DNA from: a virus
Taxonomy: Duplodnaviria > Heunggongvirae > Uroviricota > Caudoviricetes
Reading direction: 5' to 3' (one strand)
Virus record (IMG/VR): IMGVR_UViG_2711768166_000002
Length of the DNA stretch: 32,271 bases
Position 1 is the first letter of the stretch, and each line of letters starts with the position of its first letter. Position numbers and translations under genes: made by a program. A model generated the notes under the pieces. That model was not told the DNA's origin. It saw nothing but the letters and a program-made list of their open reading frames with translations, and did not search any database. Positions 15,905-25,067 of this stretch are shown piece by piece.

Positions 15905-16390
15905 TTATTTCAGTTCGTTACCAGGCATTTCTTTTAGCTCTTTCAAATGACAACGATTGAGACTAAACCACTCCCCGTGCGACCTATAGTTGTAATATTT
16001 TTGGTGCAATTTGGTTTCAAGCTCTCTATCGGCCGGAATCTTTGCAATTAGATTTAGCTTCCCACCACTCATGCGAGATATCTCTGAAATTCGTTTATTA
16101 ACCCTGCGACTAAACCCTATTTTTGTTAGCCCACTATCTTCAGCATGCAGAACGTACACATATGATTTTTGCGAAGCACTAGGTGCGACTTTGTTGTAAT
16201 TAATCATGTCAAACATGAAGCCTTGCTTTAGCAAAGTTTCAAAAAAGATAGAATTAACACACCCATTCCTTCTCAGCTCTGCACTTAGCTTGTCAATTTC
16301 CTCTATGATGTCGCCAGACCCCTTTCCACTTATAAGAAAATCTTGGTACATGCGACCAATTCTTGAGGTAATTTCAACAAAGTTATTCAT
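15905..16390 (-). CDS. T5orf172 (GIY-YIG-like, MUG113) domain protein, 161 aa; accessory gene between lysis and packaging modules
   Basis: C-terminal half YVYVLHAEDSGLTKIGFSRRVNKRISEISRMSGGKLNLIAKIPADRELETKLHQKYYNYRSHGEWFSL fits the T5orf172 pattern (YVYVL..G..KIG.....KR.......ELE..LH.KY..R..GEWF). Visibly AT-rich codon usage compared with the flanking phage genes. Confidence 0.7.
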   Translation of the reverse strand: MNNFVEITSRIGRMYQDFLISGKGSGDIIEEIDKLSAELRRNGCVNSIFFETLLKQGFMFDMINYNKVAPSASQKSYVYVLHAEDSGLTKIGFSRRVNKRISEISRMSGGKLNLIAKIPADRELETKLHQKYYNYRSHGEWFSLNRCHLKELKEMPGNELK

Positions 16391-17973: not shown

Positions 17974-18509
17974 GTCTTACCCCCAATAAGGGGATTTGCT
18001 CTATTTAATTAGGAATAAGGTCGATTACTGATAGAACAAATCCAGGCTACTGTGTTTAGTAATCAGATTTGTTCGTGACCGATATGCACGGGCAAAACGG
18101 CATGAGGTTGTTAGCGCAACCTCATGCCACCCGCTTTCACGAAGGTCATGTGTAGAAGGCCGCAGCATAACTATCACTGATGAATTCAGGATAGCCAGTG
18201 GCTACGGCTCAGTTTGGGTTGTGGCGGTCGGTGCTGAACTCCGACTTAATGACGATAGGCGTGTACCGACGCCTCGTTTTACTTCCTCCGCTTTCACGGC
18301 TTCACCCTAGACCAGCTTTACGAAATCCTCGTAAACCTAACCGCGGCAGATATGACCGGCACGGTGTGCCATATCACGGACCGGCGGGTGTCTCGTTCAC
18401 CTGATTAACGCATCAGCCTGCGTATTCACCACAACGATAAGAGCACTGGCTAACCAGGCTCGCCGACTCTTCACGATTATCGGCTCAATGCTCTTACCTG
18501 TTGTGCAGA

Positions 18510-18703
18510 TATAAAAAATCCCGAAACCGTTATGCAGGCTCTAACTATTACCTGCGAACTGTTTCGGGATTGCATTTTGCAGACCTCTCAGCCTGCGATG
18601 GTTGGAGTTCCAGACGATACGTCGAAGTGACCAACTAGGCGGAATCGGTAGTAAGCGCCGCCTCTTTTCATCTCACTACCACAACGAGCGAATTAACCCA
18701 TCG
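18510..18703 (-). ncRNA. 6S-type pR' leader transcript ending at the tR' terminator (lambda-like)
   Basis: Reverse complement matches the lambda pR' transcript as recalled (AUGGGUUAAUUCGCUCGUUGUGGUAGUGAGAUGAAAAGAGGCGGCGCUUACUACCGAUUCCGCCUAG...), ending in hairpin CCCGAAAC...GUUUCGGG plus a U-run (plus-strand ataaaaaatcccgaaacc at 18511..18528). Ends approximate. Confidence 0.6.
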
Positions 18704-18745
18704 TTGGGTCAAATTTACCCAACTTTATTCAAAAAGTCAATATCA
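18704..18745 (-). promoter_or_regulatory. Late promoter pR' with qut site for Q antitermination
   Basis: Minus-strand -35 TTGACT (plus agtcaa 18735..18740) and -10 TAAATT (plus 18712..18717), the same arrangement as lambda pR', immediately downstream of Q. Confidence 0.7.
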
Positions 18746-18782
18746 TGCCGTTAATATGTTGCCATCCGTGGCAATCATGCTG

Positions 18783-20860: not shown

Positions 20861-21029
20861 CGTCTTCTTCCTCGTACATTGAGCTATTCGGATCGCTCAT
20901 CAGTTCTGCACAGCAGTGCTCACACACGTGAACTTCCAGCACATGCAGCTTCTGACCGCAGTTAGCGCACGTTAAAGCTCGCTCGACGCTTTCTTTCTGG
21001 TATTGAAGGGATTGGGATGGGCTAAGCAT
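20853..21029 (-). CDS. ninF: NinF (58 aa)
   Basis: Hand translation [58 protein letters not shown]. Below the ORF-track size cutoff. Overlaps neighbours by a few nt. Confidence 0.7.
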
Positions 21030-21387
21030 TATTGGCGTCCTGCATCATGAGAAAGACAATCATGGCGGCGCGGAGTGGGTTTTCATCTTGAGTCATATGA
21101 TATGGGGTACTATCACTGCCAACTTTTCTATGCGCTGCCTTCCATAATCCATTTTCTGGCGCTGGAATAATGCCAATTCTGTTCTCTACGATAATCGGCT
21201 CTGCGTCTGATGGGCTTTTACAGTAATCAACCGTTTTTATTGCATAACCAGTTTCGTCATCCCACTCAACACCAACGATTGATGTTCCCAACTTTGCGAT
21301 TTCGCAATCTTCGGGAGCAAATCCACAGCAAATTGCCACTCGCTTGTTAATTTCAAAATCACTTAACTGTGAATAATCCATTGTCAT
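21022..21387 (-). CDS. NinX-like protein inserted between ninE and ninF (P22-type arrangement)
   Basis: Start taken at the internal Met ([23 protein letters not shown]...) forming an ATGA overlap with the ninE stop. The ORF track extends to 21423. Confidence 0.6.
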
Positions 21388-21560
21388 TTCCTCGCACGAT
21401 GTCTTAGCCACCGGATATCCCACAGGTGAGCCGTGTAGTTGAAGGTTTTTACGTCAGATTCTTTTGGGATTGGCTTGCGTTTATTTCTGGAGCGTTTCGT
21501 TGGAAGGTATTTGCAGTTTTCGCAGATTATGTCGGTGAAACTTCGTCGCTGTCGTCTCAT
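21384..21560 (-). CDS. ninE: NinE (58 aa)
   Basis: Hand translation [58 protein letters not shown]; lambda NinE-like. Confidence 0.75.
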
Positions 21561-21967
21561 TCGTACCTCATGTCGGTAAATCTGACACCCTGACCAATAG
21601 CCCAGGCTGTTGTGTACTCGATCAGACTTGCCATACGCTTCACGCTCATCTGCGCGCTGCTTTCGCGAATGTTGACGTATTCGCCTTCAAGGCCGGGTAA
21701 AACATCAGCTTCCTGCTTTGTTGCCACTGCATGACCGCTGATCAACAAAACCTTCCATTGTTCCGGTTTTAACCATTTGCCGCACCATTGAACCTGACGA
21801 GCGATATCCGCCAGCATCACGTGAAATTTTGCGTTCTGGTCAAGGTTGCGCTTGTAGTCAGTAATGCGGATGGTGACTGGCTTGTCTTTATCGAGTGGTG
21901 TTGCGAGGATGGCATTTATTGCGGCTTGCTGTTGTTGCTTAGTTCGGAGGAAGATTGTTTGCTTCAT
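21557..21967 (-). CDS. ninB: NinB (Orf-family recombination mediator)
   Basis: 136 aa; shares the motif NLDQNAKFH...[15 protein letters not shown] with lambda NinB (SLDQNRKLW...LGDVSRQVEWHGRWL) as recalled. Confidence 0.8.
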
Positions 21968-22301
21968 CGAAATTCTTCTCTTTAATTCCAGCGGCTCTGA
22001 TAGCTTTCATTACTGCAATTACCGTTTTGTCACGCCCATCCTCATAACCCATCGCATAAGCACCTTCTTCACCATCTTTCCAAAAGTCGTCATTCGATTC
22101 TGGCCAGTCGATATCCAGTTCAATAGCTGCTCGCGATGCCTGCCACGTTTGCCAGTGGCCTTGAACATCGTCCATCACGTATTGACCACCAATATCACCA
22201 CTGCCAATTTCATGGTGATTTTCAGGGTAACGGATAAGGTCTGATGATTCGCCTCCACGTCGCAACCAACTTTCTTCAAACTGCTTTCTTGATTCGTCCA
22301 T
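21939..22301 (-). CDS. Hypothetical acidic, Trp-rich protein (120 aa) in the ren slot
   Basis: ORF track; function unknown. Confidence 0.5.
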   Translation of the reverse strand: MDESRKQFEESWLRRGGESSDLIRYPENHHEIGSGDIGGQYVMDDVQGHWQTWQASRAAIELDIDWPESNDDFWKDGEEGAYAMGYEDGRDKTVIAVMKAIRAAGIKEKNFDEANNLPPN

Positions 22302-22318
22302 CGATACTTACCCTCAGT

Positions 22319-22525
22319 TCAACTCACAAAACGCCACGCCACTTTTGCTACGACAACAGGCATAACACCGATAATCACCCACAGGAAAATGCTACCGAAA
22401 AGCACACCCACCGGGTCTTTACCTTCGCCTACCAACCGGACAAAACTGCTGGCAACAACAATGAACGTCGCCACCATCCACATGGCACCGAGAATCCTCA
22501 ATGCAGAGAAAATCAACTCAACCAC
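22319..22525 (-). CDS. Small hydrophobic protein (68 aa, two predicted transmembrane helices)
   Basis: MVELIFSALRILGAMWMVATFIVVASSFVRLVGEGKDPVGVLFGSIFLWVIIGVMPVVVAKVAWRFVS: two hydrophobic stretches separated by a charged loop. First gene after the tR2-like terminator. Confidence 0.5.
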   Translation of the reverse strand: MVELIFSALRILGAMWMVATFIVVASSFVRLVGEGKDPVGVLFGSIFLWVIIGVMPVVVAKVAWRFVS

Positions 22526-22539
22526 GATTTACCCTCCCC

Positions 22540-22572
22540 CAAATAAAAAGGCCTGCGATTACCAGCAGGCCT
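22540..22572 (-). terminator. tR2-like intrinsic terminator between the replication genes and the nin region
   Basis: Perfect 8-bp stem aggcctgc/gcaggcct with an 8-nt loop; on the minus strand it is followed by a U-run (complement of aaataaaaa). Confidence 0.7.
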
Positions 22573-22600
22573 GTTATTAGCTCAGTGATGTAGATGGTCA

Positions 22601-24052
22601 TCAGAATCCTCCTTTCTTCTTGGACTGCGGTTCCTCGCGTTCACGTCGGCGCATTTCAGCAGACTGTTGGTCTGTGTCATAAATAGCGCCATTTGCCTGA
22701 ATGCAATACACCGTGCCGGTATTGCCATGACGATTGAGACGAAGGATTAGTTCGGTTTCACCAGGTGGAACACTGTCATCAAAAGCGCCTTCACGATGGA
22801 TCCCAACCCAATAATCGCAATCCTGTTCAATCTGCCCTGTATCTCGTGAGTCACTTGGTAATGGGCGTTTATTGGTTCGGCTTTCCAGTGCGCGGTTAAG
22901 CTGCGTCAGAAGCACAACAACGCAATCAAGCTCTTTGGCAAGGTTCTTCAGTCCTTTGGTGATCATGCCGTAAGCAAGGTCGTTGCGATCGGCCTTCTCA
23001 GCGGTCATTAGTGTCAGGTAATCGACCAGAATCATGCCAACACATCCTTTTTCTCGCTTGATTCGACGGCTTTCGCTGACGATTTGAGCCAGAGATAATC
23101 CCGGCGTGTCGTCGATGTAAAGCATGTCGATTTCACTCAAGCGATTAGCTGTTTCGATCGCCCTGTTGAAGTCACCATCGTAATCACCCTGATAGCCGTC
23201 ATCAGCGTCATTTGTCGCCGGAAGGTAAAAAATATTCGGGTTAACACCAGACTTCTGCCCTACCAGTTTTTCCAGTATCTGATCACCTGGCATTTCAAGG
23301 CTGAACATCAAAGCGGGCTTTTTCTCATGCACTGCGCAATTGATTGCCATCTGGCTGTATAGCGTCGTTTTCCCCATCTTAGGGCGAGCGCCAATGACAA
23401 ACAGAGAGCCTTTCACCAGTCCTTTCGGTGACAGCATCCTGTCCAGCGATGGGATCCCTGTGCTCATTCCTCGTTGTTCGCCTGACGGATCAAATCGCTT
23501 CTCAAGGTCGCTAACCCAGTCTTCCATGACCTCACCAAATGAGCGAAGGCCGCGACGCGATCCGGTTTTTGCATGGTCTGTCAGTTGCGTGAAAATCGCC
23601 TGAATAGCTTCGTACTTCTGCGTTGCAGTCATTCCGTTGCGGGAATAGAGCAATTCCGTCGCTTCAGTCATGCGGTTGATGGCGTAGCGTTCCATTGCGG
23701 TTTCACGAACCTGCATTGCATAGGCAACGATGTTTGCTGCGCTTGGCGTGTTCTTTGCGATCTCAGCGATATAAGCAAAACCGCCAACAGACGCCGTTAA
23801 CGATTTACGCTCCAGTTCATCGAAAAGCGTCAGGCCATCTACTGGCTTTTGCTCCCGGTGCATTCTGGTTATCTCTTCGAAAAGGATTTTGTGTGGTCGG
23901 CTGTAAAATGAATCAGGCTTCAGCATCGCCAGAACTTTCTGGACGCGCTCACTGCTGTCATCATCCAGAAGCAATCCACCAATCACCGCCTGCTCTGCCT
24001 CGATGCTATGGGGCGGCGCATAAAAATTATCGGTCATCGTGTTCACCCTCAC
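22601..24052 (-). CDS. Replicative DNA helicase, DnaB family
   Basis: 483 aa. DnaB N-terminal motif PPHSIEAEQAVIGGLLLD and Walker A GARPKMGKTT. True start may be the Met at 24037. Confidence 0.9.
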   Translation of the reverse strand: MRVNTMTDNFYAPPHSIEAEQAVIGGLLLDDDSSERVQKVLAMLKPDSFYSRPHKILFEEITRMHREQKPVDGLTLFDELERKSLTASVGGFAYIAEIAKNTPSAANIVAYAMQVRETAMERYAINRMTEATELLYSRNGMTATQKYEAIQAIFTQLTDHAKTGSRRGLRSFGEVMEDWVSDLEKRFDPSGEQRGMSTGIPSLDRMLSPKGLVKGSLFVIGARPKMGKTTLYSQMAINCAVHEKKPALMFSLEMPGDQILEKLVGQKSGVNPNIFYLPATNDADDGYQGDYDGDFNRAIETANRLSEIDMLYIDDTPGLSLAQIVSESRRIKREKGCVGMILVDYLTLMTAEKADRNDLAYGMITKGLKNLAKELDCVVVLLTQLNRALESRTNKRPLPSDSRDTGQIEQDCDYWVGIHREGAFDDSVPPGETELILRLNRHGNTGTVYCIQANGAIYDTDQQSAEMRRREREEPQSKKKGGF

Positions 24053-24917
24053 GAACTTTCAGGTAGGTATTGTCGTTAAGCAGGAAATCAAATCCCTTTT
24101 TGTGCCAGACGGTTCCGCGTTGATGGTTTGGGCGTTCTTCGAACATCCATCGGCAATTTTCGCCTACGTAGCTCAAATAATTTCTCCAGTCCTGCATCGT
24201 GAACCCATGCCCGTCAAGCTGGCGGGTTATCACTCCGGCTTTGCGCCAGAACGTTCGGATCTGGTTTTTACGCTTGTCATTCAGTGCGCGGATTCTTGGC
24301 GCTTCAGGAAGGATTTCGTGGTAAGCATCGACAACATCCTGACAGCTAACGGAAGGTTTTTTCTTGTCAGACTTTTTGTCTGCTGTGGCACTCTCTAATA
24401 CGTCAGTATTAGAGATATTATTTATATTATTGTTTATGGACAACCGTTGGACAACCGTTGGACAATCTCCGCTGAGAGCCGCGCCATTACTGGTGTTTGC
24501 GTTGGACAACCGTTGGACAACCGTTGGACAATTTTTTGCCTGAAAATCGTCATATTTAACGATTGTAAACAGGCTAAATTTCTTCCCCATCGAGCAAATA
24601 TTAAGCATCCCTTTCGACTCAAAAGTCCGTAATAAGCTCCGAACTTTGTTGTCGGGGATGAATGTTTCTCTGACCAGCGACGGGCGTCCAGTTATCATCT
24701 GACCGCGATCAACAGTTATCGGACCGATATCCGTATTGACGACAGTAGATTCGTGATTAGCCTTGAGGATTAAGTGAAGCCAAAGATGTACTGCCTGAGA
24801 GTCCTTATAGAGCCTGCTGTCCATAAACTGGCGGTGTATAGAGACATACCCCATACTGGATGCCTCCTGATGTTGTACAGGGTTATGCCTGTAATCAGCT
24901 AACTTAACGACGCCCAT
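24027..24917 (-). CDS. Replication initiator (O-like) containing the origin iterons in its coding sequence
   Basis: 296 aa with internal peptide repeats CPTVVQRLSN encoded by the direct DNA repeats. An alternative start at 24854 (MGYVSIHRQF...) has a better AGGAGG RBS. Confidence 0.8.
   Translation of the reverse strand: MGVVKLADYRHNPVQHQEASSMGYVSIHRQFMDSRLYKDSQAVHLWLHLILKANHESTVVNTDIGPITVDRGQMITGRPSLVRETFIPDNKVRSLLRTFESKGMLNICSMGKKFSLFTIVKYDDFQAKNCPTVVQRLSNANTSNGAALSGDCPTVVQRLSINNNINNISNTDVLESATADKKSDKKKPSVSCQDVVDAYHEILPEAPRIRALNDKRKNQIRTFWRKAGVITRQLDGHGFTMQDWRNYLSYVGENCRWMFEERPNHQRGTVWHKKGFDFLLNDNTYLKVREGEHDDR
24395..24535. repeat. Replication origin: two clusters of about 2.5 direct 11-bp repeats (GGACAACCGTT) flanking a 38-bp spacer, with an adjacent AT-rich region
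   Basis: Repeats at 24438..24465 and 24504..24531; AT-rich tattagagatattatttatattattgtttat at about 24408..24437. Same logic as lambda ori inside the O gene. Confidence 0.75.
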
Positions 24918-25067
24918 GTTTCACTCCTGCTTTGGCTAGTCTGTAAACACCAACAAGGCGCTCTGCGAACGCCCTGTTATTTGCTGCGGCTACCACTAAT
25001 CCCTCAGGTGAATCAGGGTGTCGAATCTCTTCTTTTTCCTGGTATTTCTTACGACGTTTTGTCATAA
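24907..25067 (-). CDS. Possible small basic protein (53 aa) between cII and O
   Basis: Hand translation MTKRRKKYQEKEEIRHPDSPEGLVVAAANNRAFAERLVGVYRLAKAGVKHGRR. Overlaps the putative pO/oop region; may be spurious. Confidence 0.3.

Follow-up and report, generated by a model that had tools for sequence, protein, structure and literature searches.

Two optional genes between the tR2 terminator and ninB in the nin region of a P22/HK620-like prophage of Escherichia coli

In phage lambda, the terminator tR2 lies 30 bp past the AUG of the micro-ORF NinA; it terminates transcription in vivo, is overridden by the N-type antiterminator, and is suppressed by ribosomes that trail closely behind RNA polymerase (PMC4824070). 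Translation through the NinA hairpin could modulate termination (PMC4824070). Since ninB starts right after the NinA/tR2 boundary sequence, lambda has nothing in the slot between the terminator and ninB. In HK620 and Sf6 this block bears the annotation 'terminator tR2', in Sf6 also 'bsq6 boundary sequence', and ninA is annotated in HK620, SPN9CC, Sf6 and HK630. The terminator, the NinA micro-ORF and the mosaic slot that follows them are already known, as are the families of the two proteins described below.

We analysed a stretch of 32,271 nucleotides (hereafter, the window), which is a P22/HK620-like prophage of E. coli; it encodes P22-type capsid, portal and ejection proteins and a tailspike, and a region of 721 nt matches E. 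coli strain E1 (NZ_CP104503.1) at 100%. The features of the early-right operon are collected in Table 1. The gene upstream of the slot was identified as a replicative helicase by Pfam (DnaB_C, 2.8e-60; DnaB, 3.4e-31) and PHROG 19, in agreement with the RefSeq annotation, and ninB forms the downstream edge; the order is helicase, NinA with tR2 inside it, a gene for a 68-aa protein, a gene for a 120-aa protein, and ninB.

Table 1. Features of the early-right operon of the window, with positions numbered from the first nucleotide of the window.
Feature	Position	Strand	Evidence and remarks
Early-right operon		-	Pfam, PHROG, RefSeq annotation
cro	25672-25487	-	
cII		-	Next after cro
53-aa ORF	24904-25065	-	PHROG 1331; between cII and the O-like gene, overlaps the O start
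O-like initiator	24917-24027	-	
DnaB-like replicative helicase (P22 gp12 / HK620 P type)	22601..24052	-	Upstream neighbour of the slot
NinA micro-ORF, 27 aa (MTIYITELITGLLVIAGLFIWGRVNRG)	22518..22601	-	Single hydrophobic helix; PHROG 5907, 1.3e-18
Intrinsic terminator tR2	22540..22572	-	8-bp G+C-rich stem, 8-nt loop, U-run; terminator scan and fold
Shine-Dalgarno-like GGGGGAGGG	22532..22540	-	Within the conserved boundary sequence; sequence and alignments with lambda and other phages
68-aa two-helix inner-membrane protein (predicted)	22319..22525	-	PHROG 1165; WP_001579629.1; homologue of HK022 gp58
120-aa acidic protein, Phage_phiTE_015 family	21939..22301	-	PF26207; PHROG 343; WP_000344554.1
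ninB (Orf recombination mediator)	21557..21967	-	Pfam NinB 3.1e-55; PHROG 72
ninE, ninX, ninF, ninG, ninH, Ser/Thr phosphatase, Q-like antiterminator		-	Downstream of ninB, in this order

Several other elements of the window were seen in passing. The 53-aa ORF corresponds in position to HkaW of HK630. Within the O-like initiator gene, two clusters of three 11-nt direct repeats (GTTGGACAACC) at 24426-24543 are probably the iterons of the origin. A GIY-YIG nuclease gene on the minus strand (15905-16390), flanked by the lysis cassette and the terminase genes, may represent an insertion of the homing-endonuclease kind, and about 810 nt without an annotated gene (17974-18782), between the Q-like antiterminator and the holin, in which no tRNA was detected, presumably hold the late promoter and the Q-utilisation site. 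Rfam gave no match within 21000-23500. Two plus-strand ORFs antisense to the slot (21864-22244 and 22244-22546) belong to no PHROG family and were treated as spurious.

An earlier note on this DNA, made from the sequence alone, had placed a strong terminator hairpin at the upstream edge of the slot, and both the hairpin and its U-run were confirmed, on the minus strand. The stem, at 22572-22549, is formed by 8 bp, six of which are G-C pairs (AGGCCTGC...GCAGGCCT); UUUUUAUUU lies directly 3' of it, and the U-run (TTTTTATTT) reaches about 22540. From the start of NinA through the U-run (about 70 nt), the block differs from lambda 40567-40640 at a single position and, as judged by this alignment, the hairpin is lambda tR2 itself and no chance hairpin. 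The note had missed the 27-aa NinA ORF that contains the terminator. The ORF encloses the entire hairpin; its ATG overlaps the stop codon of the helicase gene (TGATG), and its own stop overlaps the GTG start of the 68-aa gene by 8 nt. NinA carries no PGAP annotation in the E. coli source genome, and the local Pfam, NCBIfam and PADLOC scans returned nothing significant for the protein; a search for functional literature on NinA with ribosome profiling found none. In HK022, the counterpart of NinA diverges after 30 nt and the hairpin is lost, yet the peptide is still hydrophobic (MTIYITELIAGLSLLMVLTVYIIKYIL...), which suggests that the NinA peptide is itself under selection. Past the U-run, the Shine-Dalgarno-like GGGGGAGGG would, from its position in the aligned sequences, act as ribosome-binding site for the next gene after tR2, which is the 68-aa gene in the window and ninB in lambda.

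The first gene of the slot starts with GTG, 7 nt downstream of GGGGGAGGG; in SPN9CC an ATG is found at the same position. Its product had been described in the earlier note as a small protein with two hydrophobic helices, and hydropathy and the AF2 model agree with this description. The protein (GRAVY 1.52, pI 9.98) has hydrophobic stretches at residues ~4-30 and ~38-62, for which Kyte-Doolittle windows of 19 residues peak at 2.15 and 2.62, and the model is a helical hairpin (H2-33 and H38-67; pLDDT 90); the two hydrophobic segments are thus of at least ~20 residues each and are separated by a short polar turn, as expected of a membrane hairpin. By the positive-inside rule, applied to the basic residues R10, K61 and R65, both termini are probably cytoplasmic and the G-K-D turn periplasmic. 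The HMM of PHROG 1165 matches positions 1-68 of 68 (2.1e-36). All of the homologues found are 68 aa long and come from Escherichia, E. albertii, E. marmotae and Salmonella; a profile query extended the family to 235 clusters, still confined to Escherichia/Salmonella. Residues G13, W16, T20, K36-D37 in the turn, G44 and W49 are invariant in the family, as are I51-I52-G53-V54, P56 and A60-K61-x-A63-W64-R65-F66. The N-terminal half occurs in two types, 56-60% identical, joined to an identical C-terminal half, which points to recombination also inside the gene. The ORF of 68 codons is intact in all of the 25 other loci examined, with a median pairwise dN/dS of 0.36. The protein had no significant Pfam match (the only one was to DUF2975, E 0.49), no NCBIfam match, and no PADLOC match at E<=1, and no solved fold resembles it.

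The second gene fits the earlier description of an acidic, Trp-rich protein of 120 aa that precedes the nin genes: its product has a pI of 4.47, 26 Asp and Glu against 13 Lys and Arg residues, and five Trp, and ninB follows directly. The gene overlaps the start of ninB by 29 nt (21939-21967) because the variant found in the window ends in an extension of 13 residues and not at the K-V-K-E stop that is usual in the family; the same extended C-terminal end is seen in H-19B and in 933W-type phages. Relatives include HK022 gp59, 933W L0091 and Sf6 gp48. Membership in the family is indicated by several lines of evidence. The HMM of PHROG 343 matches the protein along its full length at 2.7e-34, precomputed PF26207 matches cover all of the 120 closest homologues (one of them 98% identical) and also the proteins P0061 and P0110, and the identical protein WP_000344554.1 is named 'phiTE_015 family protein' in RefSeq. 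The local copy of Pfam gave no match for the 120-aa protein, for nine diverse family members, or for phiTE_015 itself, and therefore apparently lacks the PF26207 model. Aligned by hhalign against the family alignment, phiTE_015 (JQ015307, from the Pectobacterium myophage phiTE) gave a probability of 98.3% and an E of 1.1e-14 over 91 columns. RacC and YdaE of the Rac prophage of strain K-12 were also considered as relatives and were rejected, as the family motifs are absent from their translated sequences.

An exhaustive profile search placed the size of the family at 804 representative clusters at E<=1e-3; nearly all members are single-domain proteins of 85-140 aa, and the median pI is 4.9. 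With this number of clusters for the 120-aa protein, and the dN/dS of the 68-aa gene, the idea that the two are spurious ORFs was rejected. Column conservation over 114 representatives divides the protein into three zones: a constant two-helix N domain (R5, F8, E9, Y41, W50, W53, Q54, A55, S56 and R57, followed by I-E-I-E-L-P), some 30 residues without conservation, and a constant C-terminal end (A-I-x-A-A-G-x-K-V-K). In the AF2 model, residues 1-50 are at pLDDT 89-97, and residues 73-79 and the end of the tail are poor. Among 66 proteins with an N domain at least 80% identical to that of the window protein, about 24 mutually unalignable tails were counted by greedy tail comparison (single-linkage of the N and C modules merged nearly all of them through the conserved end motifs). 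The I-E-I-E-L-P and A-A-G-L-K-V-K motifs flank the unrelated tails, a cassette-like hypervariability within a protein of about 100 aa. In P0263, P0268, P0061 and similar proteins, one or two small modules are fused at the N-terminus, one zinc-ribbon-like (C-x-x-C...C-x-C, ~30 aa) and the other, of ~35 aa, beginning with 'MRWAIKHKSGRTLFVTSDEF...'. The 120-aa protein matched nothing in NCBIfam, nor in PADLOC at E<=1, and no solved structure (PDB, by sequence or fold) or annotated viral model resembles it, the BFVD matches being to uncharacterised proteins; the paper describing phiTE does not discuss gene 015.

The position of the 120-aa gene directly upstream of ninB, which recurs in Hafnia prophages and, where both genes are present, in numerous contigs of the survey, with one gene intervening in Sf6, could indicate an accessory of the NinB/Orf recombination pathway. 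However, the order of lambdoid genes is conserved whatever their function, other genes lie between the family member and ninB in 933W-type phages, and no nucleic-acid-binding fold was detected for the 120-aa protein. Moreover, ninB is not found nearby in phiTE, in which gene 015 lies three genes from a NinX homologue, or in a 46.8-kb phage contig, in which a Lar-type restriction-alleviation gene precedes the family member by two genes within an early cluster. We regard a role in this pathway as very unlikely.

To define how the slot varies, IMG/VR was scanned for the exact 33-nt core of tR2; 120 contigs were found, and the 112 with ninB downstream formed the survey set. The slot is empty in 59 contigs, with ninB about 48 nt past the core as in lambda, and occupied in the other 53, by inserts of 261-1323 nt, in line with the suggestion of an accessory slot in the earlier note. 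The 68-aa gene is present in 26 of the 112, always directly after NinA (46-53 nt past the start of the tR2 core), and the 120-aa family in 32. Deposited phages show the same diversity: HK620, HK75, HK629, HK630, mEpX1 and Stx2 phage 86 carry the 68-aa gene only, 933W, VT2-Sakai and many Stx phages the 120-aa family only, and HK022, mEp213, 683R2 and H-19B both genes. The slot is accessory, variable and prone to swaps, and its two genes, which might have turned out to be conserved core genes of the nin region with known function, are common but optional. As each occurs without the other, in contigs as in deposited phages, the two are best described as separate modules in a known mosaic hotspot.

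The survey also bears on whether the two genes form one two-component system, be it a soluble protein with its membrane anchor or a toxin-antidote pair. They occur together in 18 of the 112 loci, against about seven expected if they were independent; in such loci the 68-aa gene is usually followed at once, with constant spacing, by the 120-aa gene, and the pair, arranged as in the window, is found in about 200 of 5426 complete E. coli genomes. Yet the 68-aa gene stands alone in eight loci and the 120-aa family in 14, the phiTE_015 family is present in phiTE, Hafnia prophages and other phages in which no 68-aa homologue was seen, and the excess of co-occurrence is accounted for by the two genes being physically linked within a mosaic hotspot. 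An obligate system was rejected because each gene is found alone, and we consider a two-component system in any form distinctly unlikely.

In the earlier note, the two genes were said to sit where lambda has ren (Rex-exclusion resistance); a further reading is that they substitute for it. The sole point in favour of this reading is that both genes come, roughly, after the replication genes on the map. Lambda has the order P, ren, NinA/tR2, ninB, which puts ren upstream of tR2, whereas the two genes are downstream. Among the 112 contigs the gene upstream of the terminator is ren in 43, a helicase of the type found in the window in 43, and another gene in 26, and 14 of the 43 contigs with ren have one or both accessory genes beside it; in H-19B and in an O111 prophage the order is ren, NinA/tR2, 68-aa gene, 120-aa gene, ninB. 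BLASTP of the two proteins against lambda Ren gave E values of 8.6 and 4.2. Gene order, co-occurrence and BLASTP together refute the substitution as a claim of position or homology, and the idea that the two genes replace ren is hardly credible overall.

Located in the pR operon beyond tR2, the two genes have translation starts that are coupled or closely spaced, and no promoter-like site was found between tR2 and the two genes by a consensus scan, which weak promoters can escape. In the picture that we favour, the boundary sequence would act as a plug-in site, giving a terminator and a ribosome-binding site to the gene that comes next. The 68-aa and 120-aa genes would be delayed-early, transcribed only when an N-type antiterminator carries RNA polymerase through tR2; the layout of the sequence suggests expression during lytic growth and silence in the resting lysogen. 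Delayed-early, lytic-phase and N-dependent genes would be poor candidates for exclusion by a resting prophage. Some expression without N is possible, since termination might be less efficient when NinA is being translated through the hairpin (PMC4824070).

These considerations weigh on another reading, in which the 68-aa protein is a membrane toxin or shields the lysogen by superinfection exclusion or abortive infection; the earlier note had pointed to toxins and exclusion factors among the small membrane proteins of such slots. Small size, hydrophobicity and transmembrane helices are frequent among exclusion proteins and type I toxins; the 68-aa protein, small, very hydrophobic and with two predicted transmembrane helices, resembles them in this, and its family occurs only in temperate phages of Escherichia and Salmonella. 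However, the gene lies behind tR2 with no promoter-like site between and, as its start overlaps NinA, should be silent in a lysogen; the protein has no PADLOC match, no significant Pfam match to holin, Hok, Ldr, TisB, SieB or Imm, and not the charged C-terminal tail typical of holins. We consider a toxin or a protective factor of this kind rather unlikely.

As to what the two proteins do, the 68-aa protein would, in our preferred reading, insert in the inner membrane as a helical hairpin and act in or on a membrane process. The 120-aa protein would be soluble and cytoplasmic, its constant scaffold presenting a fast-swapping tail that binds a variable target of the host or of a competitor, much as a counter-defence or host-takeover protein would. 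Alternatively, recombination at conserved DNA junctions could be reshuffling a loop that the protein tolerates, in which case the variable tail would not determine specificity. No functional evidence for either protein was found in local Pfam, NCBIfam, PADLOC, PDB, BFVD or the literature; searches on phiTE_015, the WP accessions, the PHROG and Pfam identifiers and L0091/933W, and on nin-region anti-defence and small membrane proteins of lambdoid phages, found no functional study. With low certainty, we take both proteins to be non-essential, host-modulating factors of the lytic cycle, and the two genes, with equal reserve, to be neither a toxin-antitoxin pair, nor a ren substitute, nor an exclusion system expressed by the prophage. 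The overall picture, of delayed-early accessory modules with the roles just proposed, we hold with moderate confidence; its anatomy is much more certain and the specific biochemical roles much less so. A bolder version, in which the phiTE_015 family is a widespread and hitherto unrecognised counter-defence or host-takeover class with a constant two-helix scaffold and a rapidly exchanged specificity tail, and the 68-aa hairpin serves in the lytic phase to neutralise a host defence that acts at the membrane or to block secondary infection while lytic growth proceeds, is speculative and we give it only a small chance of being correct.

For a lambdoid nin region the finding is an ordinary one, since both proteins belong to catalogued families and the slot is swap-prone and well known; hundreds of E. 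coli genomes have annotated proteins identical to them. What is gained is a corrected map, in which the slot is distinct from the position of ren. A testable lead is offered by the phiTE_015 family, with its near-constant N domain and more than 20 unrelated tails among close relatives, a tail diversity familiar from proteins subject to arms-race selection. Should the family serve in counter-defence, about 800 sequence clusters would be annotated, in phages of Escherichia, Salmonella, Hafnia, Cronobacter and Pectobacterium.

Class II holins and pinholins, T4 Imm, SieB and Hok-type toxins are of similar size to the 68-aa protein and have one or two transmembrane helices. The 68-aa protein differs from these in having no match to their sequence families and in lacking a charged C-terminal tail, a recognisable promoter of its own and a signal for lysogenic expression; its gene belongs to the delayed-early operon and not to the lysis cassette or immunity region. 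Much closer are the relatives within PHROG 1165, HK022 gp58, an unannotated ORF after ninA in HK620, and SPN9CC_0027, which share with the window protein a length of 68 aa, a place directly after NinA, the invariant G13, W16, T20 and G-K-D, and also W49, I-G-x-x-P and A-K-x-A-W-R-F. The N-terminal half of the window protein belongs to the HK022 type, which shares about 56-60% identity with that of HK620.

The members of PF26207/PHROG 343, among them phiTE gp015, Orf41 of Pseudomonas phage D3, HK022 gp59, 933W L0091 and Sf6 gp48, are, like the 120-aa protein, small, mostly acidic and encoded in early or accessory gene clusters, and the motifs S-R-x-Q-F-E-x-W, G-x-Y, W-x-x-W-Q-A-S-R-A-A-I-E and A-I-x-A-A-G-x-K-V-K are common to PF26207 and the window protein. 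Two traits set the latter apart: an insert of about 12 residues (YPENHHEIG and IG) that is peculiar to its subfamily and falls in N-domain columns with at least 85% gaps family-wide, and, unlike the usual member, the C-terminal extension of 13 residues that runs into ninB. The boundary itself is that of lambda tR2/NinA (bsq6 of Sf6), with the same hairpin and U-run, the same ATGA/TGATG coupling to the upstream gene and the same Shine-Dalgarno-like run past the U-run. What differs is its surroundings: the upstream gene is ren in lambda and a DnaB-type helicase in the window, and where ninB follows the boundary directly in lambda, 606 nt with two extra genes are inserted in the window.
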